From: Chiloscyllium plagiosum
Lineage: Eukaryota
Assembly: GCF_004010195.1 (NCBI RefSeq)
Contig: NC_057734.1
Coordinates: 41,007,904 to 41,071,903, forward strand
Direction: 5' to 3'
Length of the DNA: 64,000 nucleotides
Shown here: in pieces, positions 4,919 to 64,000 of the stretch
Numbering within the stretch: the first letter of the stretch is position 1
Layout of the letters: every line of letters starts with the position of its first letter
Translations under genes and position numbers: made by a program
Notes under the pieces: generated by a model
Told to the model about the DNA's origin: nothing
What the model saw: only the letters and a program-made list of their open reading frames with translations
The model's database searches: none

Positions 4919-4965
4919 CTTGAAGAGAAAATGGAAAATTAATCATTCAAAACCAATAGCTTAAA

Positions 4966-5150
4966 TTAGACCAAAAACAAACTGCTAGAGAAACTCACCA
5001 GGTCTCGCAGCATCTGTGGACAGAAAGAGTTAACGTTGAGTCGAGTGCGTCCTTTGCTTTCTCTCCACAGATGTTGCCAGAACTGTTGAGTTGCTCCAGC
5101 AATTGATTTTTGTTTCAGATTTTCAGCATTTGTAATTTGTTTTATTTTAG
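4966..5150. mobile_element. Degenerate PLE-related fold-back mini-element
   Basis: Imperfect inverted arms (gagaaactcaccagg..gcagcatctgtgga / tccacagatgttgccag..gagttgctccagc), similar to 16829-17006. Confidence 0.55.
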
Positions 5151-6906: not shown

Positions 6907-7097
6907 CTCTTCCCGTCTACCACCATTACTAGAAGTGCTAAAGGATTTGTTGCTGCCACGTGCAGGCGGTCTCTTGTCAAAAGCTTTGCTTTTCTGTGGA
7001 TTGGTGCGGCGGGTCTGGTTAGATACATTTTCGTTTTTAGGAAAAGCCGGGTCTCGTTTCCTGTTGTAGCATCTTGATCCAGTTCCACCTTTACCAT
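6907..7097 (-). CDS. RNF10: RNF10 coding exon 2
   Basis: (D)[30 protein letters not shown]...SNGGRREE; tgcag acceptor, GTGAGA donor. Confidence 0.93.
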
Positions 7098-7702
7098 CTG
7101 CAGAAATATTTAAAAGTGACAAAACAGGTCATGAATCAATTGTTCATCTGAACTCATTGATTTGTTTAGAAAAGGCATGTCAATTGGAGAGTTATGATAA
7201 AGGACAAAATGCTGAAGAAACTCAGCACATTGGAGTTGGAACTTTAGCTTGGTTTCTCTTTCCACTGATACTGCCAATGAGTTTCTCTAGCATTTTGTCT
7301 TTTTATTTCAGATCACCAGCTTCCACAACACTGCTTTTATTGGAACACTACAGAGTCAGGTTGTAGATCAGCCACCTTCTCCTACCCTTCTATGAACAGA
7401 TGAACTGCATTTGATATGTTTAGATTCTAAAGGAATTAATGCATGTTAAGATGTAAAAGAACAATTTATCTAAACATAAAATTTTGACCAGTAACTTGAA
7501 GGTTCATGTTTAAGAGCCAGAATTTAAGAACCCCAGTAGAAATAGGTGTCTCAAACTCCACCTGTCATCTACATGTGGTCCAACATTAACATCAACATAG
7601 CATGCACTGTAACAGTTTTACAGACACATGCAGTATACTTGGACAGAGTACTGAATACAGGAGCAACAGGAGGTAGAAATCACAGATTCGATATTGAAGA
7701 CT

Positions 7703-8629
7703 CTGCAAGGTTTGTAGCTCAGGTTGAGGTTTAGGGTGTAGATTTGCTCGCTGAGCTGTAGGTTTGATATCCGGATGTTTCATTACCTGGCTAGGTAACA
7801 TCATTAGTGGCGACCTCCAAGTGAAGCGAAGCTGTTGTCTCCTGCTTTCGATTTATAGGTTTGTCCTGGATGGAGTTCCTTGGGTTTGTGGTAATGTCAT
7901 TTCCTGTTCGTTTTCTGAGGGGTTGATAGATGGTATCTAGATCTATGTGTTTGTTTATGGCGTTGTGGTTGGAATGCCAGGCCTCTAGGAATTCTCTGGC
8001 ATGTCTTTGCTTAGCCTGTCCCAGGATAGGTGTGTTGTCCCAATCGAAATAGTGGTTTTTTTCATCCATGTGTAGGGCTACGAGGGAGAGAGGGTCCTGT
8101 CTTTTTGTGGCTAGCTGGTGTTCGTGTATCCTGGTGGCTAACTTTCTTCCCGGTTGTCCTATGTAGTGTTTGTGGCAGTCCTTGCATGGAATTTTGTAGA
8201 TGACGTTGGTACAAACACTACATAGGACAAACAGGAAGAAAGTTAGCCACCAGGATACATGAACACCAGCTAGCCACAAAAAGACACGACCCTCTCTCCC
8301 TCGTAGCCCTACACACGGATGAGAAAAACCACTATTTCGACTGGGACAACACATCTATCCTGGGACAGACTAAGCAAAGACATGCCAGAGAATTCTTAGA
8401 GGCCTGGCACTCCAACTACAACGCCATAAACAAACACACAGATCTGGATGCAATCTATCAACCCCTCAAAAAACGAACAGGAAATGACATCACCACAATC
8501 CCCGGAACCCCATGCAGGAGAAAGATGTAAATAGAAAGCAGGAGACAACAGCTTCGCTTCACTTGGAGGTCACCACTGATGATGTTACCTAGCCTGGTAA
8601 TGAAACGTCTGGATATCAAACCTACACCC
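7703..8629 (-). mobile_element. Penelope-like element, 5'-truncated with an inverted copy; GIY-YIG endonuclease C-terminus
   Basis: NVIYKIPCKDCHKHYIGQ..RIHEH..REFLEAW; ~7755-8175 is inverted at ~8208-8625; TSD tattgaagact at 7692-7702 and 8630-8640. Confidence 0.9.
8573..8612 (+). ncRNA. Minimal hammerhead ribozyme (PLE type), intact core
   Basis: CCA-CUGAUGA-U-GUUACC-uagccu-GGUAAU-GAAA-CGUC-UGG; predicted cut after 8609. Confidence 0.7.
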
Positions 8630-8692
8630 TATTGAAGACTATTGATTAGAGTTTTCAATATTGAGAGTGTACAGCTTAAAAATTAAAACATT

Positions 8693-9292
8693 GTGATCTA
8701 ACCAACACAAAAAAGTTACAGGACAACAGAGCTCACCAACAATTTTCCAGTGTCACTGGAAAGCACGAAGCAGAACATTAGCCTTCTGCCTATATCTCCA
8801 AGTATCAGGTCAACTGCATTTATTGATAGCGAAATGAATCACCAGTCTGAACCCAGCCCAGGAATATCTGCCAAAGTGTAAATGAGTGGGGAGAAATACT
8901 GACTGAGAAAACACACATGCATAATTTTGTTCAAGCTTATTTAAAAATTGCAAAGTTGAAACAAACAGAACAGCATTGGATTTTCAGAGCTGGGTAGTGA
9001 AAGATAAAAACATCTGAAGTGATCTAACCAACACTCAAAATAAGTTATAGCACAGAGCTCACCAACAATTTTCCAGCGTCACTGGAAAGACGAAGCTGAA
9101 CATTAGCCTTTTGCCTGTATACCAACCATCAGGTCAACTGCATTTATTAATAATGAAGTGAATCACAAGTGGGTGGGGAGAAACACTGACCAAGAAAATA
9201 CATATGCATAATTTTGTTCACGCTTACTTAGAAATTGCAAAGTTTGTAGCAAACAGAACTGAGCATTGGATTTTCAGGGCTGGGTAGTGAAA
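8693..9292. repeat. Local tandem duplication (~8693-9002 and ~9019-9292)
   Basis: Both units run from gtgatctaaccaacac to gctgggtagtgaa with substitutions and indels. Confidence 0.85.
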
Positions 9293-10373
9293 ATTCAAGG
9301 TTACCTGCTTTCTCCATTCCCCTTAACAGTACTGCTCTTTAACAAAACTGCCTCAAGTTGACAAAGTCTAATAGGGATAAAGAAATTCAATCTTCACCAG
9401 CTAAGCAGAATATTCAAGGAGAACTTAGAAACATATTTAACTACTTCATGAATTATTGACACTTCAATGCCTTTATCAATCCATGAAAAACTCAACCAAT
9501 TCTTATCTTCATTCCAACATGTCTCAAAGCATTTCCATGCGTTTGAACACTGCATAAAGTGCATTTATATGGATTAAATAGACTGCGCAGCTCAGAACCA
9601 GGTTGAAACAATTTTAGTTATATAGCAACTTTAACATTTCAAGATGTTTCACAGGGACATAAAGCAAAATATGACATTACATGGTACAGAGATATTAATT
9701 CAGATGCTCAAAAGCTTAGTTAAAGAGTTGGGTTTTAAGGACTGCCTTAGAAGAGGAAAGCAAAATCAAAAGGCAGAGATGTACGCAGGTAATTCTAGAA
9801 CTTAAGACCTACACAAGTGAAGACGTGGTTACCAATGCTGGGATTAAAATTGGTGATGCACAACAGGCCAGAATTGGGGAAGTGCAGATCTCAGTTGTCA
9901 GACTGGAGTGAATTACACAAATAGGGTGGGGCACAACCAGGAAGGATGCAAAAATGGGAACTTAAAATACATTGCTGCACCCTGAATCTTTACTGTCCAG
10001 CAAGCACTTGGGGTGATAGAGGAATGGGATTTAAGAGTTAACCAAAGAACAAAGTTTTGGATGAACTCAGATTCATCCAAAGATGTTGGAGGGAATCCTG
10101 AGGGACAGGATGTACATGTATTAGGAAAGGCAAGGACTGATTAGGGATACTCAACATGGCTTTGTGTGGGGGAAATAATGTCTCACAAACTTGATTGAGT
10201 TTTTTTGAAGTAGTAACAAAGAGGATTGATGAGGACAGAGCAGTAGACATGATCTGTATGGACTTCAGTAAGGCATTTGACAAGATTTCCCATGGGAGAC
10301 AGGTTAGCAAGGTCTCATGGACTACAGGGAGAACTAGCCATTTGGATACAGAACTGGCTCAAAGACAGAGTGG

Positions 10374-10555
10374 ATCAGTGGTGCTGGAAGAGCACAGCAA
10401 TTCAGGGAGCATCCGACGAGCAGCAAAATTCCTGATGAAGGGCTTTTGCCCGAAACGTCGATTTTGCTGCTCGTCGGATGCTGCCTGAATTGCTGTGCTC
10501 TTCCAGTTTGCTGATCCAGAATCTGGTTTCCAGCATCTGCAGTCATTGTTTTTAC
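10374..10555 (+). mobile_element. Non-autonomous PLE-derived fold-back mini-element with hammerhead
   Basis: 16-bp TSD ctcaaagacagagtgg (10358-10373, 10556-10571); inverted arms flank the hammerhead core. Confidence 0.85.
10420..10470 (+). ncRNA. Hammerhead ribozyme, intact core
   Basis: CUGAUGA (10432-10438)-A-GGGC-UUUU-GCCC-GAAA-CGUC; stem I GCAGCAAAAU/AUUUUGCUGC; predicted cut after 10459. Confidence 0.75.
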
Positions 10556-11989
10556 CTCAAAGACAGAGTGGTGGAGGGTGGTTTTCAGACTGGAGGCCTG
10601 TGACCAGTGGAGTGCCACAAGGATCAACGCTGGGTTCACTACTTTTCATCATTTATATAACTGATTTGGATGAGAGCATAAGAGGTATAGTTAAGTTTGC
10701 AGATGAGAGCCAAGGTTACCCCACATTAAAACAGGATCTTGATCAGATGGACCAGTGAGCTGAGAAGTGGCAGATGGAGTTTAATTTAGATAAATGAGGT
10801 ACTGCATTTTGGGAAAGCAAATCTTAGCAGGACTTATACACTTAATGGTAAGATCCCAGGGAGTGTTGCTGAACAAAGAGACCTTGGAATGCAGGTTCAT
10901 AGCTCCTTGAAAGTAGAGTCACAAGTAGGTAGGATAGTGAAGGCAGTGTTTGGTATGCTTTCCTTGATTGGTCAGAGTATTGGGTACAGGAGTTGGAGGT
11001 CATTTTGCTATACAAGACATTGATTATGCCACTTTTGGAGTACTGCATATAATTCTGGTCTCCTTCCTATCGGGAGGATATTGTGAAACTTGAAAGGGTT
11101 CAGGAAAGATTTACAAGGATGTTGCCAGGGTTGGAGGATTTGAACTATAGGGAGGGGTTGAATAGGCTGGGGCTGTTTTCCCTGGAGCGTCAGAGGCTGA
11201 GGGGTGACCTTAAAGAGATTTATAAAATCATGAGGAGCATGGATAGGGTAAGTAGACAGGGTATTTTCCCCTGGGGTGGTTGGGTCCAGAACTAGAGGGC
11301 ATAGGTTTAGGGTGAGAGGGGAAGGATTACAAAAGAGACCTAAGGGGCAACTTTTTCCACACAGAGGGTGGTGTGTGTGGGTGGAATGAGCTGCCAGAGG
11401 AAGTCATGGAAGCGAGTACAACTGCAACATTTAAAAGGCATTTGGATGGGTATATGAATAGGAAGGGTTTGGAGGGATATGGACTGGGTGCTGGCAGGTG
11501 GGACTACATTGGGTTGGGATATCTGCTCAGCATGGACATGTTGGACTGAAGGGTCTGTTTCTGTGCTGTACATCTCTATGACTCTATGGCATGCAGGTCA
11601 ACACCGAAGGAGAGCGAGAACCAGCTATAGGAGTCAGAGTTATACTTATGGTTGCGGACTAAATATTGACCAGAGAATCGAGGAATTTTTACCCGTCCCC
11701 CACCACAGCCATCCAACAGGAACCTTTTACAGGTGTCGGGAGTGGGGGAGATAAATAGACTACTTTTACAGTGCAACATAGGATCAGGACGACAGCTACT
11801 CAGGTTAGTCATGCCCAAAGGGTGCGAGGTGCAGTCAAGGCTTATTGAAAGCTAAAACAATTGCGACATGTGTATATGAGATGGCGGTGAGGGGAAGAGA
11901 GACAGAGACGGAGGGAAGACATTGAGGGTACTTTTAAAGGCAATGTAAACACTGCAGGATTTGAATGGGGGCGGCACCACCGACTCTAC

Positions 11990-16599: not shown

Positions 16600-16760
16600 A
16601 TCTTTGAACTCTGACCATTCTGACAAAGGAGTCACTGAACGTGGAACTTTAACTCTGTCTTTCTCTCTGCAGATGCTGCCAGACCTACTGAGTTTCTCCA
16701 GCATTTTCTATTTTTCTTTCAGATTTCCAGGAACTCTGGTTGTTCGATTTTATTTTAGTA
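16600..16760 (+). mobile_element. Degenerate PLE 3'-end fragment with decayed hammerhead
   Basis: ttctgacaaaggagtcactgaacgtggaactttaac followed by the family tail cagatgctgccagacct..gagtttctccagca. Confidence 0.55.
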
Positions 16761-16828
16761 ATCCAATTGTCCAGCTCACTCATGACCTTTTTTAGTTCAT
16801 TTTGTCTCAGCTAAACTGTAACACACTT

Positions 16829-17006
16829 ATAAAAACCGAAAGAACTGTGAATGCTGGAAATCAGAAACAAAAACAGAAGTTGCAGGAAAATCTCAGCAGG
16901 TCTGACAGCAGTTCTGAGGAAGAGTCACTGGACCTGAAACACTAATTCTGATTTGTCTTCATAGGCGCTGCCAGACCTGCTGAGTTTTTCCAGCAACTTC
17001 TGTTTT
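16829..17006 (+). mobile_element. PLE-derived fold-back mini-element (second family)
   Basis: 12-bp TSD tgtaacacactt (16817-16828, 17007-17018); core CTGAGGA-A-GAGTC-actg-GACCT-GAAA at 16914-16939. Confidence 0.75.
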
Positions 17007-17959
17007 TGTAACACACTTGCCCTTGAGTCAAAATGCCAAACAATCTTACAGATGAGACAAATCAAGCCCCCTTGTGGTCCCTTGGCAGTGATTAATAAGA
17101 ATTAATACAGCTTAATTGGTGCAGAAAAAAGGTAACTGCTGGAAATACTCAACAGGTCAGGCAGCCTCTGTGGAGAGAAAAAAACAGTTAACATTTCAGG
17201 ACAGCAAAATGTATTCAGAACATTCAATCTTATCATTTAGCTCAATCATACAGATTAACCAACAAATGCCTACCGTTTGGCAGAGTATTTTGAATTCTGT
17301 ACCCTGGGTAACAAATGTTCAGATTTGGTTGGTAGCATTCTTGTGTCTACATCAGAAAAATGTGAGACTTGGTCCTTCTTGGTATTTTTCCCATTGGTTG
17401 TAAGCTGTAAGTGATTTAAATACCTTCTGTAAATCAACTCTTGTTTTGGAAGTTTGATGCAGAGTTGGCATAGATGTCTACAGACCTGACAGCTTATGCT
17501 GTTGTTGATACTTGGAGGAACTTAAGCAGCTGTAGGTGGGCACATCACCGATGTTGTGAGTTTGTCATATAGGGTCCTTAAAGCAAACTAAAACAAATTA
17601 CAATGCTAGTCTTCACATGGGCCATTCTGGTTCAGTTGTTTCCCAGGAGAGGTGGTCTATTGCATTATAGAAGCTGCTTTTCTTTTGTTTCATTTGTACT
17701 CACCACCTTGATGTCATTTGCCCTGATACTGTTCTCCATTAAATCCCTGGCTGGAGACTCTGGAGGCATTCATGTGGGAGACATGTCATCTAATTTATGG
17801 AAGCAGATCAAAGGTGGGCAAGAAAACCTTAAAATGAAACAAAGGACAGTGGATGCTGAAGATCTAAAACATAAACAGAAATTGCTGGAGAAACTCAGCA
17901 GGTGTGGCCACATCTGGAGAGAGAAAACAAAGTTAACATATTGAGTGCTGTGGCCCTAC

Positions 17960-19169: not shown

Positions 19170-19834
19170 TGTGGGAAAAGATTTGCTAACCCACGATAGG
19201 CCCGCAAAAGCAAAATTGGCCAAACTGTACCAAAACACCCAGAATTCCCAAGCAGCTCACAATCCGAATTAGACAGCATGCAGACAAGGGAATACACTTT
19301 AAGCTCCCACGATCAATGACAGAGCACCACAGATATCTCAAAGTTCCAAGGGCAGTTTCACAACCCAGCAATACCAAAGCCACGCAAAGAGCAGGTCAGA
19401 CAGAGAGGCACCAGCAAGGACACACTCCAGGAACAGGACAATGGAAGTACCTCAACACTTCAGAGGAGACATTAACACCTACCTGTGAAGAGGAATGGAA
19501 CTGTCGATACTATCAGGATGTTGCATTGTGTGAAGGAACAGGACATACATCCGATAACTGTTTTCCAATTAGCATCCTTGAACCTAGATTACTCCCATTT
19601 CCAGATACCGATTAAGAAATGGGAAACTACAATGTGTCATTGTGCAGCATTACTAGAAAACTGGTCTCATCCTCAGCTCTGGGAAGAGAAATCTGATCTA
19701 CCTGCACAGATTGTCAGTTCTGTGTCAGCTGGTCTGTTTCTCTTCCAGCGATATCATTTGCAATAAACTGTTTGTCAATTTCACTTCGAGCTGTGTTTTG
19801 TGATCTCTAGCCTATTGGGCAAATTTCTCTGACA
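19170..19834 (+). repeat. ERV 5' LTR
   Basis: TGTGGGAAAAGATTTGC...GCAAATTTCTCTGACA imperfect terminal inverted repeat; AATAAA at 19762-19767. Confidence 0.9.
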
Positions 19835-19837
19835 GTT

Positions 19838-19854
19838 TGGCGTTAGTCGGTAGG
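19838..19854 (+). promoter_or_regulatory. Primer binding site, tRNA-Ser-like
   Basis: TGGCGTTAGTCGGTAGG versus TGGCGTAGTCGGCAGG, the complement of the vertebrate tRNA-Ser 3' end. Confidence 0.75.
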
Positions 19855-20344
19855 CCCTTTTTTTCCTCTCTCAACAGGGTAAGCGAACCTCACATTTTAA
19901 ATTTAACCCGATTCGTACCTAGCGGCCAGCCCTGCCTGGAGGTCAGACCAGAGAATGGCTGGACGACTGCGGAGGGTGGTCACATTTCTGATTTGCAATG
20001 AATTGGCGTCAGCTACTTCATTTGGGAAATTGAGTAGTGACTCTGGCCTGTGCAAGTGGGCACTTGGCTCAAATTGTTAACTGACATTTAAGCTACCATG
20101 TCTGGGCCTGTAGAAGTCTTCTGGTGGGAAAGTAAGTTAACTGGCAGCCGATAATTCGGTACTAAACAGCGTGGACTGGGCTTGTGGAAGTTCTCACCTG
20201 TGCTAAGTTAATTACCGAAATATTTGCAACAAACCTTAATTTGGCCCACGCATGATCCACCTTGAGCCAGGATTTCTGTCACGAACCTGTTCTAGCCAGG
20301 AGAAAGACGGTCGGGCAGAGAAAGTTAGGCACAATACGTGGAGA

Positions 20345-20553
20345 TTCTGGATCAGTGGTGCTGGAAGAGCACAGCAATTCAGGCAGCATCCGACGAGCAG
20401 CAAAATCGACGTTTCGGGCAAAAGCCCTTCATCACAGGGCTTTTGCCCGAAACATCGATTTTGCTGCTCGTCGGATGCTGCCTGAATTGCTGTGCTCTTC
20501 CAGCACCACTGGTCCAGAATCTGGTTTCCAGCATCTGCAGTCATTGTTTTTAC
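20345..20553. mobile_element. PLE-derived fold-back mini-element nested in the ERV
   Basis: 15-bp TSD cacaatacgtggaga (20330-20344, 20554-20568); ~87-bp inverted arms; same family as 10374-10555. Confidence 0.88.
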
Positions 20554-21219
20554 CACAATACGTGGAGAGACTGCTCATCAAATTCTCGCTTTACTACTGA
20601 CAGATCCACAGCTCAAACAAAATTGACTTGGGCCCAGCTATGTTGTCCTGTCCTGTGGTTTCTAAGTATTTATTTTGGGTGTGTCTGCTTTTTCTGTGCT
20701 TATGAGTGCTTGCTTTGTCAATTTCAGTTCTCCCACCTGACTGTGTTTGTTCAGCGCTTACGTGTTTGTTTGCGGTCAGCGATGACTGGCTTAAGTAACT
20801 TTTATTGCCTAACCTGTCAATCACTCACTACCTGTATTCCGTTAGCTCTCTATCGCTGTGTTTTTTCCTCGAAACCTAAACTTAGAAGTCATCCCAAGAC
20901 ATCCAGGACACCATGGGGGCACAGACATCAACCGTCTGCTGGGAGATGCCAGCTGTGGGAGCTGGGCAACCCCAACCATGTGTTGAGGAAGGTCTGGGGC
21001 TGAAAATGAACAAGAGTGCCCAGAAAAGGCATGGTAAATACGTAAATTGCAAGAACAAGGTGGAAAGGTCCATATCTGATCCTAACAACGACCTGGACTG
21101 CTATGAAACTGGAAGGACAGCCCCAATGGGCACATGCCACCCACTGCAAGAGGGGTCCACAACCTATGAACAGGGACCACACAGAGGAAGACACCACTCC
21201 AACCCCCCTCCCCCCGAGG

Positions 21220-22657
21220 ATGGATCCAGCTGCTTGTGGCAGCCATCGCCATCAGCACTCTCGGCCTGAGCTATCTGACCGTCACACTGTGGCTTGCTGG
21301 TAAACAGGGACAAGGGGCAGGACATTTCATAACCCACCGTGACTTACGGGCCAATACCTTCCTCAAAATGGCCCATGGGTATGCCCAGAGATTTAATCAG
21401 ACCCGCTGCTGGGTCTGCACTTGGTCCCTGACCACTCTCACGGAGGCATTCCTTTAGCCTCAATCCCATTAAATATCTCTGACATGGCGGAACGGTGGCT
21501 AGACCCAGCTAGGTCCCTGAACTAACCACACTTGCCATGGCCAACTACGGGGACAACAGCCCAGCCCGCTGGAGATCGGCAGGGTACCACCTGGTGAAAT
21601 TTACAGGGTGGTTTTACCCGGCCTACAACCTCTCCCATGAGCCCCCAGCCCTGACCATTGCTGACACTAACACACAAGGGCCATCTATGGGATCCATCTG
21701 TTTAAAAAGCATACAGCCATTCAGATGGGAGGCTGGCTGTAGCCAGTGCACTGACTCCCTAGTCCTAACTCCCGCAGCATGCCGATCCGCTGCAGAAGGC
21801 AGCATTTTAAACCTACAGGTCCTCAACAGGACCAGCCAGAACACCGCCTCCCTCACCATCTGACAGGGATCCAGACCCGCCATCTCCGACCCTACAACGG
21901 CACCTATTTTATCTGTGGCCACAAAGCCAACCCTGGTTGCCGTTATCCTGGACTGGGAGCTGCTATGTCGGGTATGCCCATGACCCACAGCAGACGAGCC
22001 CTTGCTGCCATTAAAGCAGGTCTCTAACTGATATCACCCCACTCTGCAACCCTGCGGTTACAGGTAGAAGCCCACAAACTCGCCGCCACACTGGAGGAGG
22101 TGGCAAACTCCACAGCAGAAGCACTCGCCCAGCTGAATGCAGAGGCTGTTACCATCCGTACTGTGGCTCTGCAGAACAGGATGGCCCTGGATTACCTGCT
22201 CGCTGCGAAAGGGGACACACGTGCCCTTATTGGTGCTGACTGCTGCACTTACATTCCTGACCCCAGTGAAAACAACACAGACCTGGCTCAACATATCCAG
22301 CAGGCAGCTTCTGTCCTGCATGATCAGAACTCCCACAGGGACTTATGGGACTGGGCAGCCTCCTGGCTGGGGTCACGGGGCACAGCCCTACTACAGGGAT
22401 TGATAGCCCTCATTGCTGACCTTATAGCGCTAGCCATGGCCATCCGAGTGTGCTGCTCAAGCCTATGTGCAATCTTGTTACCCTCTGCTCCCTCCACCAC
22501 TCAGCTAGCACAGATCCACTGGCGGAACATCCCTGCCCCTGGCATTGGCACTGCTGAGCAAGACTCGGATACTGAGAGCCAACTGTCCGATACGGACCCC
22601 CCACCCAACAATCCCCCTGGCTCCAGCAACATTGCCCCCTTCTTGTCCCTCCCCTAA
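21220..22657 (+). pseudogene. env: Retroviral gamma-type envelope pseudogene
   Basis: Hydrophobic leader, CWVC (21407-21418), YNGTYFICG, ISD LQNRMALDYLL (22169-22201), R-X6-CC (CX6CC with TGT>CGT), TM helix; frameshifts and stops; no clear furin site or fusion peptide. Confidence 0.88.
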
Positions 22658-22660
22658 GCA

Positions 22661-22678
22661 AAACAAAAAATGGGGGAA
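22661..22678 (+). promoter_or_regulatory. Polypurine tract
   Basis: aaacaaaaaatgggggaa immediately before the 3' LTR. Confidence 0.8.
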
Positions 22679-22679
22679 T

Positions 22680-23222
22680 TGTGGGAAAAGATTTGCTAAC
22701 CCATGATAGACCCACAAAAGCAAAATTGGCTAAACTGTACCAAAACACCCAGAATTCCCAAGCAGCTCACAAGCCGAATCAGACAGCACGCAGACAAGGG
22801 AATACACTTTAAGCTCCCAGCAAGGACATGCTCCAGGAACAGGACAATGGAAGCACCTCAACACTTCAGAGGAGACATTAACTCCTACCTGTGAAGAGGA
22901 ATGGAACCGGTCGATATTGTCAGGATGTTGCATTGTGTGAAGGAACAGGACATTCCTCCGATAACTGTTTTCTAATTAGCTTCCTTGCAATTAGATTATT
23001 CCACTTCCAGATACATTGTAGTTTCCCATTTCTTAATCAGTGTCATTGTGCAATATTACTAGAAAACCGGTCTCATCCTCAGCTCTGGGAAGAGAAATCT
23101 GATCTACCTGTACAGACTGTCAGTTCTGTGTCAGCTGGTCTGCTTTCTCTTCCAGCGATATAGTTTGCAATAAACTGTTTGTCAATTTCACTTCGAGCTG
23201 TTTTGGGCAAATTTCTCCGACT
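22680..23222 (+). repeat. ERV 3' LTR
   Basis: Homologous to the 5' LTR but lacks ~100 bp and ~20 bp segments, has a 25-bp inversion, and ends CT instead of CA. Confidence 0.9.
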
Positions 23223-23830: not shown

Positions 23831-23954
23831 AATTCTATTTCAAAAGAGAAATTTAACCATCGCCCCTGACATTCAATGGCATCACTATCACTGAATTCCC
23901 TTCTATCAACACTGGAGGTTATCACTGACCGAGCTGGACTAGTCATATCAGTAT

Positions 23955-24603
23955 GCAAAAGTGAGGACTGCAGACGCTGGAAACCAGAGTTTAGATTAAA
24001 GTGGTGTTGGAAAAGCATAGCAGGTCAGACAGCATCCAAGGAGCAGGAAAATCAATGTTTTGGGCAAAAACCCTTTATCAGGAATGGAGGCAGGGAGCCT
24101 CCAGGGTGGAGAGATGGGGGGGGTGAGACTGGTGAGAAGGTAGCAAAGAGTACAATAGGTGAATGGGGGGTGGGGATGGAGGTGATAGGTCAGAGGGGAT
24201 AGGTGGGAAGGGAGATTGTCAGGTAGGACAGGTCATGAGGACAGTGCTGGGCTGGAAGGTTGGAAATGGGGTAAGATGGGGAGGAGGGGAAACGAGGAAA
24301 GTGGTGAAGTCCACATTGATGCCCTGGGGTTGAAGTGTTCCGAGGCGGAAGATGAGGCATTCTTCCTCCAGGTGTCAGGTGGTGAGGGAGCGGTGGTGGA
24401 GGCTGCCCAGGACCTGCATGTCCTTGGCAGAGTGGGAGGGGAGTTGAAATGTTGGACCACGGGGCGGTGGGGTTGATAGGTGCGGGTGTCCTGGAGATTT
24501 TCCCTAAAGCACTCTGCGAGGAGGCGTCCAGACTCCCCAATGTAGAGGAGACTACATCAGGAGCAACGGATACGATAAATGACATTGGTGGATGTGCAGG
24601 TGA
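23955..24603 (-). mobile_element. Penelope-like element 3' portion (GIY-YIG plus 3' UTR with decayed hammerhead)
   Basis: Minus FTCTSTNVIYRIRCS*CSLLYIGE..VVQHFNS; cctgataaagggtttttgcccaaaacatt; TSD agtcatat(c/a)agtat at 23941-23954 and 24604-24617. Confidence 0.85.
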
Positions 24604-25190
24604 AGTCATATAAGTATTGTGGCTACAAGAACCTGTCAGAGGTTAGGAATCTTGCAATGAGTAACTCACCTCCAGGCTCCCAAAGTCAGTCCATCATCTA
24701 TAAGGGATGTCAAGAATGTGATGGAACACTTCTTCTGTCTGGAAGCGTGCAGCTACAACACTCAAAAAGTTCAACACGATCCAGGATAAAGCAGCAATCA
24801 TTTGATTGGTACCACATCCACAAAGAATTACTCCATCCAACAGCTGTGTACAATCAATAAGGTGCACTGCAGAAATTCATCAAGGCTCCTTAGACAACAT
24901 CTTATAAATCTGTGATGACTTCCATCAAGAAGGACACAGGCAGCAGATACATGGAAACACCGCCACCTACAAGTTCCCTCCAAGCCACTCGCCACCGTGA
25001 CTTGGAAGTATATTGCTCTTCCTTCAGGATTGCTGGTCAAAGTTCTGGAACACACTCCCTAACAGTATTCTCGGTGTATCTACACCAAATGGACTTTAAT
25101 AAGACGGCAGCTCACAACTATCTTCCCAAAGGAAACTATGGATGGGCAATAAATGCTGTCCCAGCCAACAATTCTCGCATTCCATGAGTG
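24604..25190 (+). mobile_element. 3' part of CR1-group LINE (host of the PLE; upstream part at ~23850-23954)
   Basis: Collinear with 12745-13400 in reverse; ends gatgggcaataaatgct..attccatga. Confidence 0.75.
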
Positions 25191-29152: not shown

Positions 29153-29289
29153 TTTGACTTTTGTCTTTGACATTTGCCAGCTTTGAATACAGGATTTTCT
29201 TTCAGTCCTGATAGGGACTCGCATACAACTTAGTTGAACTTGTATGTATGGTGGTTTTTGTAGAATAATTTTTTTATTTCTTGTTACAG

Positions 29290-29439
29290 TTTACAAAGTA
29301 TTTAAAAATGTTGCCAAAAATTATGATATAATGAACGACGCCATGAGCCTCGGCATTCACAGGTTATGGAAAGATGCACTGATTCGTATGATGAACCCAC
29401 TGCCTGGAACAAAGCTGCTTGATGTGGCTGGAGGAACAG
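29290..29439 (+). CDS. COQ5: COQ5 exon 2
   Basis: (V)[28 protein letters not shown]...LLDVAGGT(G), SAM-binding motif I. Confidence 0.97.
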
Positions 29440-29639
29440 GTACAATAATTATTCCATATACTCCTATGATGGGTATGTAAACATTTTCTGGTTCCTGCAT
29501 TCCTGATCATTCTCCCTTTTGATTTACCTAACTCTGAAAATGTTTGAGTTTTTGATGTGTTAAATTTGAGGTTGAGGTAACAGGCTCACTGAGATAAATG
29601 CTGTTGGTATGGAGTGAGGCATTGACACAGTGCCACATA

Positions 29640-32356: not shown

Positions 32357-34682
32357 ATAGTGTCGATTCAGTAATGGTACTGTCATTGAATGTCATGGGA
32401 TGGTGGTTAGATTCAAGCCAACTTTGAACGATTATTTGGAAAGAAACAATGTGCTGGGATATATGAAAGAACCAGGAGATTGGCACTCAGTAATGATGCT
32501 CATTTGAAGAACTGATGCAAGCATGGTGGGCTGAGTGGATTCTTTCTGCACCATAAGACTTCTGCGATTCCTTGAAATGAAAAAGGGAATGTCAACATTT
32601 TTCGCTATAGTGATCAGTTGAGCTTTGGATCAGTGTTGAGTCTTGGATAACAAATCTATCCCGTCACCAGGGCCACAATTCCACCTTCATAAAGTCACTG
32701 CACTCTATCCGTGAATCCATTCACCTGTTGCTGAAACCCTCAACTATGCCTTTAGCTCTTGCCTTGAGTTTTCCAGTGCATCGTTGACTTGCGTTGCATC
32801 TTCCACAAACTCATTGAGTTCATTCGAGACTCTTGCTCCCATCATAATTGACAACAAATCCCACTTCCCCATCATCCTATTCTTGCTGACCTACAATATT
32901 ATAGGTCAGTAGTGCCTTGATTTTAAAGTTCTTGTCTTCGCCTTCAGTCCCTTCATAGTCTCACCCCACCTTATCACTGTAATCCTTTCTGATCCCACAA
33001 ACCTCCAAGCTATCTACAGCCCTCCAACTGTGGCCTCTTGAGCCCTGATTTTAACTGTTCTACCATCAGCAAATGGATTTTTAACTGTTTCAACCCTAAG
33101 TCTGCCTCAACCTCCTTAAACCTCTCTCTGCATCTCTTTCCTCCTTTCCAAGATGTTCCATAAAACCAACCACTTTGTGGCTCAGTCAGCTTTAGTTTGC
33201 CAGTTCTCTTGTGAAGCACCATGGGACATTTTACCACATTAACAATGCTGTATAAAGTGGATGTAAGCAGCAGTTGGTATTGCCTTCCAAATCCATAATT
33301 GTGCTTTCTCTTTTCTCCACAATCAAAAACCATTGTATTGAACAAATGTTTGAGTCAAATGGAATACATATTTAGATTCATAGTTTAACAAATAATTTTT
33401 GTTGCTTTTTTAACTTTTTGTATTTTTATTTCACTACTGTTTTTCTGTATTGAGGCAGATTAAAATTCTACAAATATCTTTGTTTAAATTAAGCAGCAAA
33501 TATAGCTGCATTCAACCTATCAAAGTGATATCACATCGCTTTCTCCTCAAAATCTTTTGCTTTATTGAGTTTATTTTGAATGGTTCCCCACTTAGTGAAA
33601 TGATATAGGAATTCTTGGCAATTATCGCTTGAGTACTTTGTGCAAGTGAATCATTGTTTATTAACAGATCTGTTTAGAAGTTGCAAAATATTGTGGAATG
33701 GGGTGTACCCATGCATATTGTACTGTTGTAAACTTTTCACTTTCACCCAAATGATGAAATGTTTTATTATGTAGTTCTAGTTGACATGCATATTACATAG
33801 TTGTAAGAAAGCTAGAAATCCCCAGATTTCTTTTCTCTTTCCCCTTCTTGATTTTAGAAGCATAGAGCTCTTTTCGTTATGCTTCCCAGAAAGGATACTG
33901 ATCAGAAACAAGAAGTCTCAATGTTCCCTTCCCAGCCAGGATCACTACAGTCTCAACAGAGGCCCATTACTGCTTGAGCTTTGAGGGGAAAGGGAGTCAA
34001 ACCTTGCTACTCCACAGTTTATTTGCACAGTGTGAGAGGATGAGATTCTTTCTGAGATAAAGGCTTCATTCCAATTTTTTTAAAACATTTTGACTGGTAA
34101 ATTGACTGAGGTTAGCAGTGATTTTGTTTTTTCAGAAACTAAGACCAGTTTCATTCCTCTTGTTAGCCATTCTTTTAATCATTTTATATTCTGGATATGA
34201 AACAAAGTTAACATTTTGTTATCACCAACGTCACACTGATATTGAATTTGCCAGTATAATGAGAATGACTGATCACTGGTCTAAGTAAAACATGTTGAAT
34301 GTTTTAAAACCATATCAAAAGCAACACATTTCACTTTCTAATGTGCTAACTCTTGCTGGAGTGTACATTCTTGGTTTGATACCTAGTTATTTCTCAGGTG
34401 AGTTGGTAGTGTCAGGAAGCAAACCTCCCAAAGCCCAAGTCAATCCATCATTCTGATAGTGAAAAATTATTGGCATTGGCTTTTCTTTCCTCTTTCCATC
34501 ATCATATTATCCCAGTAGACAAGTGCTGGAAAAAAATGGTCATATCCTGATTATCATTTGCACAAGCTGGTGTCTGAGACTGGTACTTTCTAGGTTTACA
34601 TGACTCTGCAAAAATGGATTGTTTCTTATCTGTAATAAAAACTGATTTAAATAAAATGTGAAACTTATTTGTATTTCTGCAG

Positions 34683-34910
34683 GGGATATAGCCTTTAGGT
34701 TCATGGATTATGTAAGAATGCAGCAGGAAAGACAGAGTCGACAAGCAGTAAAATCTAACCAGAGCCCATCATGGCAACAAATCAGTGACTTCTATCAACA
34801 GCAGAATAAATCCGATTCTGATTTGGGATCAAAGGCAGTCATCTGTGATATCAATAAGGAAATGTTAAAAGTTGGGAGGCAAAAAGCAGAACAGTTGAAC
34901 TATTCTGAAG
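34683..34910 (+). CDS. COQ5: COQ5 exon 3
   Basis: (G)DIAFRFMDY...VICDINKEMLKVGRQKA..; AG/GTAGGT boundaries. Confidence 0.95.
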
Positions 34911-35849
34911 GTAGGTATTACTTAAAACATGGAACATTTCCTCAGCTCTTACATGTGATTTGTAAAGCTAATAGGAACCTCCACAAACAGTTCTGATGTT
35001 GATGTATTTGAAAAAAGATATGAAAGCATGCAAGTATATAAGCGATTATAGTAAAGGATTCCATTTTTCTCAGTCTATTCAACTGGTCTTTTAACTGTTC
35101 CAATAAGGTGTTACTTATTAAATCTGGAGTTAGAAGACCCAAATGATAGTGCAGAGCAGGACTGAAGGAATAAATGTGAACAGAGAAATCTGGAACTGAT
35201 AATAAGGTGATGTTACCCAGGTACATGGAGCTTTGGAGTATGGATTGCAGCAGTTCAAAAAGGTTACTCATAATTGAAAAAGGGAATAATGTAAGGGCTT
35301 TTGAGAGTCCAAATTCCCCACGTAGCAAGATGACTACAATATTATTAGATATTGTGACTGCATCATCTAATGAAGGACTTAGAAAGACTGATAAGGAGCT
35401 CCAAGTCAGGAAATCTCACCAGTGTCTAAACCACTTCATCCCACCACCTTTGTCTCCTTGTGGATCATCCTCTGGGGTGAAGCTTTGATTGGTCCCTCCT
35501 AATATCTCCCTTTTGCTCGGCATCGATGTGAAGTTCATTGACATAATTTTCTCCACAAAAGGTGTCACATCAATGTAAGCTGTAAATAGCTGAAAGGCAG
35601 TCTGGATCAGATTGTGTTGGATTGAATACACATTTCATTTTGCAATATTTTTGATTTTGCAAGCTTGTAATAACAAGAGAGCATCCTTGTTTAAAACTGC
35701 CTTTCATTTGCATGCTTAATCATGTAAGCACAACAGTTAACTTCCACTTTTCCCACATCAGAAAAAATTCTGCCCTCTACTCCTAAAATCTCTAATTCAT
35801 GCTGAGCTTATAATTATTCTTCAGTATTTCTCATAAGTTGGGTAGTCCT

Positions 35850-36517
35850 GATTTTGGAGGTGCCGATGTTGGACTGGGTTGAACAAAGTTTAAAAATTAC
35901 ACAATACCAGGTTATAGTCCAACAGGTTTATTTGGAAGCACTAGCTTTCGAAGTGTTGCTTCTTCATTGGGTGGTTGTGGCGCAGAATTGTAAGACACAG
36001 AATTTATAGATACTTCTATTTATGAAGTGGGGTTTACAGAATCTTACATGGGTTTATGCAGTTTTTGAGCAAAATAAAATGTAATTCTGCAAGTAAGTAT
36101 GAATTTGTACTTGCAGAATTACATTTATTTTGTTCAAAAACTACATAAATCCATGTAAGATTCTGTAAATTCCACTTTAGAAATAGAATCAGTCTGGCCT
36201 AACATTGAGACACAGACTTTAACCTCACACCTTCAATGCATTATCTGAGCTGAGCTGTTGTTAAAGCTATCTTGAGAATGTAACTTTTAAATAGTTCTGG
36301 GATTTACATATGAAGGAACCAAAACTAACATGGTCATTCTAAAAGATGAAAGACTGAAGCTAAATTGGTTTAATATTACATTCCATGACTCTGCAATAAA
36401 TTCTGTGTCTTACGATTCTGCTCCACAACCAACTGATGAAGCAGTGCTTCAAAAGCTAGTGCTTCCAAATAAACCTGTTGGACTATATCCTGATGTTGTG
36501 ATTTTTAACGTTGTCCC
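35850..36517. mobile_element. Non-coding PLE-related element with terminal and internal inverted repeats (third hammerhead family, decayed)
   Basis: ~35880-36006 is inverted at ~36397-36517; ctgatgaagcagtgcttcaaaagcta ~36433; internal palindrome ~36032-36170. Confidence 0.7.
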
Positions 36518-36678
36518 AAATTGGTATTCTTCTGGTGAACTTGATGCTTTTGTCACTTCATGCCCAGAGTCATGTCCAACACCAACTAGCACTCAGAATG
36601 GCAATCCTTGTTTATTTCATTTTTGCGGAATTAACTATAGTATATTTGGTTCATAGGAATACTGTTTCTCCCCCACAG

Positions 36679-36785
36679 GTCTGTCCTGGGTGGTGGGAAA
36701 TGCAGAAGAGCTGCCGTTTGACGATGACAAGTTTGATGTTTATACAATTGCTTTTGGAATTAGAAATGTCACTCATATTGATCAC
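36679..36785 (+). CDS. COQ5: COQ5 exon 4
   Basis: (G)[35 protein letters not shown]. Confidence 0.97.
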
Positions 36786-37067
36786 GTAAGTTGATATAGT
36801 GTATTATTGAAACCAATTTATGATCAATTCTGATGGAGAAGCTGCTGCCCATTACTTTCCTTGTCTGCTATCTCTCACTAAATAGAAATGCTGTGCCTAT
36901 TTTAAAGTTGAAATAAAGAAAGGCCAAGAAGTTTATTTCCTTAATTAGAAAGTTCCTTAAAATAGTTTTACTGCATCTTATCTGTTGTGTACAAAATTTC
37001 TGTAAAGTTTCTTTCTCTTCTACCTGATGGAGTAAAAGATTATCTATGCGGAAGCCTCTGGCACTGA

Positions 37068-37181
<114 letters not shown>

Positions 37182-37721
37182 TAGCCATAGTGAATTCTGT
37201 CATTTAGCATGTTTTGGAGAATCTCCAGCATTAAGGATGGCCTGAGCTTTTTCTGCTCAATTTGTGCAATTAGAGCCTACTGCCACTACTTCCTTTTGAG
37301 AATCAGAAACCTATGCTACAAGTTTCTCCAACAGTGTACTTCTGAGTAAATGTGAATATACCATTAGGTGGATGCAAATCACTCATCATGGAGCCTATAA
37401 TTTCTGCCCTGCTTTGAACTTCCTCTGCCTCCAAAAAGTACAGGTTGAAGATAACTCAACAAAGAAACCATTGTGCCACTGCTGTTTCAAAACAATTGCT
37501 CAAAGCTTTCTACTAACTAAATAATAGCAAAAAAAACAAGCAATGTTCAGAAATACTCTTAGTAACTTTCAGATGAGGCACTTGTCAATCTATTTACATG
37601 TATGACTCTACCCATGAAGATCTAGATGCCTATTTTAAACAGACAAAAACACGAGTAAGTAGTTTGTAGGTGAGACCTCTGGGGAAATTGTCTAGCCTAC
37701 TTGTTATAAGGGTCTCAACAC

Positions 37722-51743: not shown

Positions 51744-51992
<249 letters not shown>

Positions 51993-63214: not shown

Positions 63215-64000
63215 TCACAGGATGACTGTATCAGTGCTGCCTTGTGCTCTCATGAGGAGCTTGAACAGTTCGTTCACCACACCAATACGTTCCATCCCTA
63301 CCTCAAATACACTTGGTTCATCTCCAACACCTCCCTCCCCATCCCGGACTCTCCGTCTCCATCTCTGGTGACAAACTACACATTGAAACCTACTACAAAT
63401 CTACCAATTCCCACAGATTGCTTGACTACACCTCCTCCTACCCCCACTCCTGTAAAAACATGAGCCCCTACTCTCAATTCCTCCAACTCTGCCGTATCTG
63501 CTCTCAGGATGAACAATTCTATTCCAGGACATCCTAGATGTCTCTTTCATTTCCCACACTTCTGCCCTTGAACTCACCCCTTCTAACCCTAACAGAATCC
63601 CCCAGGTCCTCACATTCCACCCCACCAGTCTCCAAACTCAAGGCATCATTCTTCGCCACTTTTGTCACCTTCAGTCAGACCTCACCACCAAAGACATATT
63701 TCCCTCCCCACTTCTATCTGCATTCCATAGGGAGCATTCCCTCCGCGACTCCATCGTTAGGTTCACAACCACACCAACTCCCTCTCCACTCCTGTCACCT
63801 TCGCCTGCTGCCATAAGAGGTACAAAACCTGCACCCATACCTCTCCCCTCACCTCCGACCAAGGTCCCCAAGGATCATTTCAAATCCAGTAGAGATTTAA
63901 TTGTATATTCTCCAACCTCAGCTTTGTATCTGGTGCTCTCAATGTGGTCTCCTCTAAATCGGACAGACCAAGCACAAAGTCGCAAGGTTCAGGGAACACC
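63215..64000 (+). mobile_element. Decayed Penelope-like element (RT C-terminus to GIY-YIG), cut by the window end
   Basis: DDCISA..ELEQFVHHTNTFHPYLKYT, YYKSTNSHRLLDYTSSYPHSCK; CSQCGLL*IGQT near the end. Confidence 0.8.

Follow-up and report, generated by a model that had tools for sequence, protein, structure and literature searches.

A 182-nt insert in intron 1 of RNF10, a gene read from the opposite strand, is very probably the hammerhead-bearing 3' end of a Penelope-like element (PLE) joined to an inverted partial copy of itself, with a one-sided tail and a 16-bp target site duplication (TSD). A full-length Neptune-like element likely supplied the enzyme that made the insert, whose hammerhead is predicted to show no catalysis where it now lies. 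All positions given here refer to the window, the 64,000-nucleotide stretch of Chiloscyllium plagiosum DNA that was analysed.

The outline given in the preliminary description, a 182-nt element between perfect 16-bp direct repeats on both flanks, was confirmed at the coordinates in Table 1. A chance repeat was ruled out (of 3000 equally spaced pairs of 60-nt windows drawn at random, 1 contained a 16-bp exact repeat), and an assembly artefact was ruled out by the perfect TSD and because contigs from two other sequencing runs also contain fold-back-like joints of this family. The direct arm is 126 nt long and has no coding sequence. The inversion junction falls at 10429/10430, directly 5' of the hammerhead core and just where it had been placed, next to CUGAUGA. 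The ~55-bp hairpin that had been described was also recovered: the minimum-energy fold of the plus strand contains a long stem of 55 pairs (-118 kcal/mol, z = -14.5), with a stability matched by 0 of 200 shuffles. Within the strict stem (10384-10429 with 10461-10506), 45 of the 46 positions are paired, the exception being a G.G mismatch at 10407/10483, and the last 36-39 nt of the insert lie outside the fold-back. The arms of the insert differ only by this one base and by a replacement, CACCA versus TTTG. TTTG stands at 10507-10510 in the direct arm, and CACCA in the three other young arms of this copy and its sister; since TTTGCTG also occurs at 10463-10469, the change at 10507-10510 may be a short templated replacement. 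A microRNA precursor was considered and rejected, as the Rfam matches to miRNA precursors fall short of the gathering scores and are due to the long hairpin.

Table 1. Coordinates of the insert, its parts, its host locus and its relatives in the window
Feature	Position	Strand	Remarks
Left TSD, 16 bp	10358-10373	+	Ends in TGG, which the element shares (outer-junction microhomology of 3 nt)
Right TSD, 16 bp	10556-10571	+	
Whole insert, 182 nt	10374-10555		
Inverted 5'-truncated copy of the element end	10374-10429	-	Complement of 10461-10516; lacks tail and core
Inner-junction 2-nt microhomology (AT)	10428-10429	.	Compatible with the inverted arm as well as with the older relative's sequence upstream of the core
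Direct arm, pLTR (3' end) of a PLE	10430-10555	+	5'-truncated 2-4 nt upstream of the hammerhead core
One-sided unpaired 3' tail, 36-39 nt	10517/10520-10555	+	End base identical to that of the sister copy
Minimal type I hammerhead motif	10432-10459	+	Identified by sequence; architecture as in PMC4209133
Intron 1 of RNF10	7098-11989	-	Coding part of exon 1 at 12080-11990; exon 2 starts at 7097
Decayed LINE reverse-transcriptase remnant hosting the element	10195-10755, extends both ways	+	RVT_1 E = 4.3e-5, under the curated cut-off
Sister insertion, same young subfamily	20345-20553	.	Perfect 15-bp TSD at 20330-20344 / 20554-20568; tail 30-33 nt
Older, longer relative	23951-24604	-	GIY-YIG endonuclease remnant at 24604-24297, then the same hammerhead-bearing end

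Evidence for the family assignment came from relatives within the window. A BLAST search of the element against the window recovered the sister insertion, an older copy at 24085-23966 (78% identity over 122 nt) and, at 31399-31324, a stub older than that. The sister differs by about 6 nt at its outer end and has a different centre; its inversion junction falls inside the core, and no intact core is present on either strand. The broken reading frame of the older relative was translated with X at the stop and used as a protein query. An exhaustive HMMER search with the peptide of the GIY-YIG remnant returned 925 proteins at E<=0.001, with a GIY-YIG match in 10/10 scanned homologues and RVT_1 also in four of these ten. 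All five long homologues that were checked contain a CX2-5CxxC linker and align to 24604-24437, and in three the alignment goes on into the C-terminal part (24482-24297). With the endonuclease remnant as query, word-indexed protein searches gave no matches, Pfam gave only E = 0.1, and Atlas gave a lead-level GIY-YIG set. Since the 78%-identical older copy follows the GIY-YIG remnant, the element was assigned as the putative pLTR of an endonuclease-bearing PLE, a link that runs through that older copy, as the element itself has no coding part. The window showed no full-length element of precisely this subfamily. The source element would be Neptune-like by the CX2-5CxxC linker of the homologues, a feature treated as a Neptune mark in Craig et al. 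2021 (PMC8557442); the 24-kb relative itself is truncated before the linker. The insert combines pLTR identity, an inverted 5'-truncated copy, a one-sided tail in the 30-40-bp range and a TSD of the variable-length type, as do truncated insertions of endonuclease-bearing PLEs. Of the five arms of the family that contain part of the core, four start between -4 and +8 nt relative to C3, judged against the long copy.

Such a fold-back is how PLEs usually insert, and not a catalytic design. Passages of Craig et al. 2021 (PMC8557442) describe an adjacent inverted 5'-truncated copy at the 5' end together with a one-sided tail of 30-40 bp, and those of Arkhipova et al. 2013 (PMC3846280) describe, in rotifer examples, an inverted pLTR with a 31-bp tail and TSDs of 8-10 bp. 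With these complex insertions of endonuclease-bearing Penelope elements (PMC3846280, PMC8557442) the shark insert shares a head-to-head inverted copy, a one-sided tail, a TSD, junction microhomology and insertion into another retroelement. It differs from them in being an extreme stub, with its 126-nt direct arm, and in the length of the TSD, which is 16 bp here and 15 bp in the sister but 8-10 bp in those rotifer examples (PMC3846280). Its host is a cartilaginous fish, unlike the hosts of the endonuclease-bearing examples in those passages (PMC3846280, PMC8557442). Searches of the literature for hammerheads and hairpins of Penelope elements in cartilaginous fish, sharks included, returned a general review and a fossil survey and no description of such a case, and figures and hammerhead alignments in supplements may hold closer matches. 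The insert is one of very many truncated Penelope-like insertions, with a pattern that has already been published and a shark case that apparently has not.

From the structure, family and orientation to RNF10 that can be read directly, we infer staggered cuts, a stop in copying, second priming and joining by microhomology. A GIY-YIG endonuclease would cut the two target strands 16 bp apart. Reverse transcription would start at the end of the tail, run for about 126 nt and stop 2-4 nt after passing the core. At the other cut, the free end would pair by 3 nt (TGG/CCA) with the RNA, 36-39 nt in from the RNA's end, and prime a second copy of 56 nt, and the two copies would be joined head to head via the 2-nt microhomology. 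The hairpin would then be a by-product of insertion, and the core a passenger. At their outer junctions, both the element and its sister match the target over 3 nt. Twin priming is an idea known for L1. In the work on Poseidon of Anolis carolinensis by Frangieh et al. 2024, both target strands were cut and extended, and two internal reverse transcriptase (RT) start zones bound the tail (PMC11167929). The shark insert resembles that system in having a hammerhead upstream of the tail, in the apparent copying through the cut site, and in a tail that corresponds to the gap between RT start zones. It appears to belong to a different clade, in that its relative resembles Neptune-like proteins with the CX2-5CxxC linker.

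Second priming was weighed against the folding back of a cDNA, and is held to be somewhat the likelier of the two. In the fold-back alternative, which retains a substantial though less than even probability, a single cDNA halted past the core, folded back via the AT microhomology, extended itself to form the inverted arm, and joined the target by the TGG match. The geometry of the junctions fits this equally well, and self-priming has been proposed for inverted Penelope junctions by Arkhipova et al. 2013 (PMC3846280); the final structure would be identical by either route. The differences between the arms, at 10407/10483 and in CACCA versus TTTG, count against a single self-copied cDNA. The G at 10407 was also seen in other copies (in two DNA runs of organism A it makes up about 3-4% of the summed depth there), which fits two templates, although a later mutation would also explain it. 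In addition, both sisters have the 3-nt outer match and a tail as long as the RT start-zone gap of the anole element (PMC11167929). Young shark fold-backs such as these, with both junctions readable, are suited to asking how the inverted copy arises and whether the ribozymes cut in vivo.

A further alternative concerns where the inverted arm stops. This arm copies 10461-10516, and a cleaved RNA would begin at G10460, which places the stop 1-3 nt from the scissile bond. The arm could accordingly be a DNA copy of a self-cleaved transcript, a reading we consider improbable. If such stops were to pile up genome-wide, the stubs would be a fossil record of in vivo cutting, and swapped dimers would represent double hammerheads occurring in nature, each held by two 46-bp stems; such a record of Penelope hammerheads cutting in vivo is what RNA-seq has so far failed to show. 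The stop at the scissile bond is a single case, and the other five aligned arms of the family all run through the site.

An intact hammerhead core had been described at the apex of the hairpin, and all of its conserved nucleotides were found (C3-U4-G5-A6-N7-G8-A9, G12-A13-A14, A15.1/U16.1 and H17, at 10432-10438 and 10452-10459). The parts are CUGAUGA at 10432-10438, an extra A at 10439, stem II (GGGC/UUUU/GCCC) at 10440-10451, GAA at 10452-10454, and a palindromic ACGU at 10455-10458 that replaces stem III; C17 is C10459, and the cut is predicted directly after it. The palindrome in the place of helix III and the unpaired A10439 just 5' of helix II are the marks of a minimal hammerhead. Rfam reported no hammerhead at its gathering score in the whole window (0 matches of any family), and at E<=10 it gave eight sub-threshold matches near the element, none of them to hammerhead families. 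The Rfam hammerhead models probably do not cover forms that lack helix III. A 29-nt core pattern had no matches in metagenome contigs and none in viral contigs.

PLE hammerheads that cleave as dimers have reportedly been described by Lunse et al. In Cervera and De la Pena 2014 (PMC4209133), cleavage was undetectable for a single minimal hammerhead and slight for dimers. The shark insert shares with these metazoan PLE hammerheads (PMC4209133) the intact core, the unpaired base 5' of helix II, the palindrome for helix III, the pLTR position, and the occurrence mostly as solo copies from truncated elements. Its helix II has 4 bp, compared with 7-8 in the schistosome families (PMC4209133), and its native helix I has only two clean pairs before a mismatch, to which the inversion adds an intramolecular stem of 46 positions.

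The preliminary description had noted that stem III consists of the ACGU palindrome only and probably needs a partner, and this was borne out. No helix III loop is present within one molecule, with zero bases between C15.2 and G16.2, and stem III cannot form in a monomer because it would need a zero-base loop. In the model of the monomer, GAUG at 10434-10437 pairs with CGUC at 10456-10459 (P 0.95-0.98), so that the core is mis-paired; the closing pair of stem I has a P of 0.07, and opening the core costs +3.9 kcal/mol. The predicted mis-pairing was unchanged at 20-37 C and with 300-nt flanks. The model thus speaks against the earlier reading of a "complete" fold-back ribozyme, and the insert is predicted to cut no RNA on its own.

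The inverted arm had also been said to supply a long stem I, which is correct as far as 45 of 46 positions are paired. The long stem stacks imperfectly on the core, as U10430 or U10429 must bulge to allow the closing pair C10431-G10460, and the tail takes no part in it. From the topology, an ACGU/ACGU double hammerhead would take its core from one molecule and the cut strand from the other, so that stem I is intermolecular. Because the double hammerhead builds stem I between two molecules, the intramolecular stem of the fold-back is its competitor unless whole arms are swapped. A long intramolecular stem I would be no rescue for a hammerhead that lacks stem III. The insert illustrates that a hammerhead able to act only as a dimer may, through an inversion, appear complete on paper.

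It is very unlikely that the fold-back nevertheless makes a working ribozyme, with two transcripts swapping arms to form two 46-bp stems around a central double hammerhead and cleaving after C10459 in the cell. The nucleotides of the core are intact, such a strand-swapped structure can be drawn without a pseudoknot, and the fold-back could yield a stem I far stronger than the native one of 2 bp. Arm-swapped dimers are also about as stable as two monomers (-204.4 versus -202.6 kcal/mol), but the best-scoring dimer in the model has mis-paired cores, and the strand-swapped double hammerhead, at -193.5 kcal/mol, lies 11 kcal/mol above it and 9 above the two monomer hairpins. These differences, uncalibrated against an active double hammerhead, are indicative only: nearest-neighbour models set a penalty on three-way junctions and leave Mg2+ and tertiary contacts out of account. 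Co-transcriptional folding should, moreover, trap the monomer hairpin, and RNF10 transcribes the strand without the core. A poly(A) single-cell RNA run showed no pile-up of ends and no reads with G10407 among 15, which is weak evidence since such libraries show 5'-OH ends and introns poorly. The claim that the insert is the best candidate in the window for an active ribozyme is disfavoured by the modelled cost of the active dimer and by the absence of CUGANGA from the strand that RNF10 reads. The native job of the core is likely to be dimeric, protein-assisted cleavage of a tandem precursor RNA, which a solo antisense copy would be unable to supply. The Anolis Poseidon ribozyme is inactive without protein, is dispensable for insertion in vitro, and shows no ends in RNA-seq (PMC11167929).

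Least likely of all is that the 182-nt palindrome is a self-propagating non-autonomous unit, MITE-like or retrozyme-like and copied whole: it is short, bounded by a TSD and abundant (33,797-37,295 contig pieces in two organism-A runs, host LINE included), but the only sister in the window differs in its centre and outer end, the inverted repeats are not terminal given the one-sided tail of 36-39 nt, and the palindrome has a single core and is not arrayed in tandem. A MITE was rejected for want of terminal inverted repeats at both ends and for an internal structure that differs from that of the sister, and a non-LTR retrozyme was rejected because a single unit with one core is arranged head to head and not in tandem head to tail. 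The animal non-LTR retrozymes described in a preprint (bioRxiv 10.64898/2026.07.22.740005), which sampled one chondrichthyan, are likewise non-coding, with a type I hammerhead and an origin from Penelope pLTRs. They form head-to-tail arrays with a core per unit, whereas the shark insert is a solo head-to-head stub with one core.

The gene call at the locus is based on an exon at 3576-3457 whose 713 protein matches point to RNF10, several cartilaginous-fish sequences among them being 100% identical. Six exons on the minus strand were located with five shark RNF10 proteins, and intron 1 is bounded by GT/AG. The hammerhead lies on the plus strand and is antisense to RNF10; on the minus strand, the element lacks CUGANGA and folds into a hairpin of -109 kcal/mol. 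Since RNF10 reads the strand opposite to the hammerhead, its pre-mRNA carries the hairpin but no ribozyme core. The plus strand may be transcribed from another promoter, for example that of the host LINE, which counts against silence of the locus. By its motifs, the host LINE remnant is probably CR1-like. Other copies of this LINE lack the insert (joints from 10364 to 10582). As to presence/absence polymorphism, the exact empty site was absent among the 15 of 188 joints listed, and the skips that were seen, such as 10364 to 10582, came from other copies of the host LINE.

Intron 1 of RNF10 contains three fold-backs (7199-7303, 7705-8629 and 10374-10555). The RNF10 pre-mRNA would thus carry long double-stranded stems, which are possible substrates for A-to-I editing or for processing into small RNAs. 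Both intact hammerhead cores within RNF10 (at 8576 and 10432) are antisense to the gene, and the arms on the sense strand are broken (7807-7775, two changes) or truncated (5051-4975); these lie in introns 1 and 3, between 4972 and 10555 of the window. On these few cases, sense-strand cores may be selected against in introns.

Four sequencing runs were aligned to 10150-10800, and the element family is abundant in organisms A and B. In bins diagnostic for the subfamily, the summed depth was 17-56x higher in run X2 (organism A) than in run X9 (organism B, 61% read), and the ratio was 1.9 for the tail bin and 1.2 for the host-LINE bin. These data suggest a recent expansion of the subfamily in organism A, where summed depth is not copy number. 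The RNA run, a poly(A) single-cell library of which about 2% was read and 382 reads were aligned, neither shows nor excludes expression. At no position did many molecules begin or end, the element's G at 10407 was found in 0 of the 15 covering reads, and 77 of 100 minus-mate reads over 10455 have a core-breaking change, by which those 77 stem from other copies. Ninety-three RNA reads from other copies begin matching at 10428. A search of sequencing runs listed no RNA run as containing the element.

The insertion had been described as young, and it looks so, as does the subfamily: the four arms of the element and its sister show 0-1 differences in 46 positions, compared with 9-15 relative to the older copies, and the TSD is perfect. 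The one-base difference between the element's own arms and their 5-to-4-base replacement argue against a brand new insertion.

Four other long fold-backs in the window (4972-5112, 7757-8626 within 7705-8629, 16867-17009 and 35890-36508) are built from hammerhead-related ends of other Penelope-type families. Three have a one-sided extension and a candidate TSD (12/12 at 16817/17007, 12/13 at 7692/8630 and 9/10 at 4957/5148), and no clear target duplication was found at 35890-36508 or 7199-7303. The fold-back at 7705-8629 in RNF10 intron 1 has arms of about 430 bp that are 89% alike, belongs to another Penelope-type family, which we presume to be Poseidon-like, and contains a GIY-YIG fragment (Atlas 0.94) and an ACGU hammerhead of its own at 8576-8609 on the plus strand. 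The nested one at 35890-36508 represents a third family; decayed hammerhead-like ends (AGCU palindrome) lie near its outer ends, and a palindrome at 36014-36188 lies further in. Three or four decayed hammerhead-bearing stubs of another family lie in both orientations at 16617-17202; the central stub has a 12-bp duplication (16817-16828 / 17007-17018), and its junction is again just 5' of the core.

The sister fold-back is inserted into an endogenous-retrovirus-like remnant at about 19170-23160, which has direct repeats at 19.2-19.7 and 22.7-23.1 kb that are 94-96% alike and matches to an integrase C-terminus (21046-21300) and, weakly, to an envelope-like sequence (22028-22654). On the plus strand, the 25.4-35 kb region contains exons of a ubiE/COQ5 methyltransferase (29238-29477 and 34655-34993), and a dynein light chain exon lies on the minus strand at 51747-51992. 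The genes in the window match the order RNF10-COQ5-DYNLL1, presumably that of other vertebrates, with about 13 kb of repeats between the starts of RNF10 and COQ5. At 63349-64000 on the plus strand, a decayed Penelope-like open reading frame comprises the C-terminal part of an RT, a remnant of the cysteine linker and the start of a GIY-YIG domain, cut by the end of the window, and could be a longer relative of these stubs.
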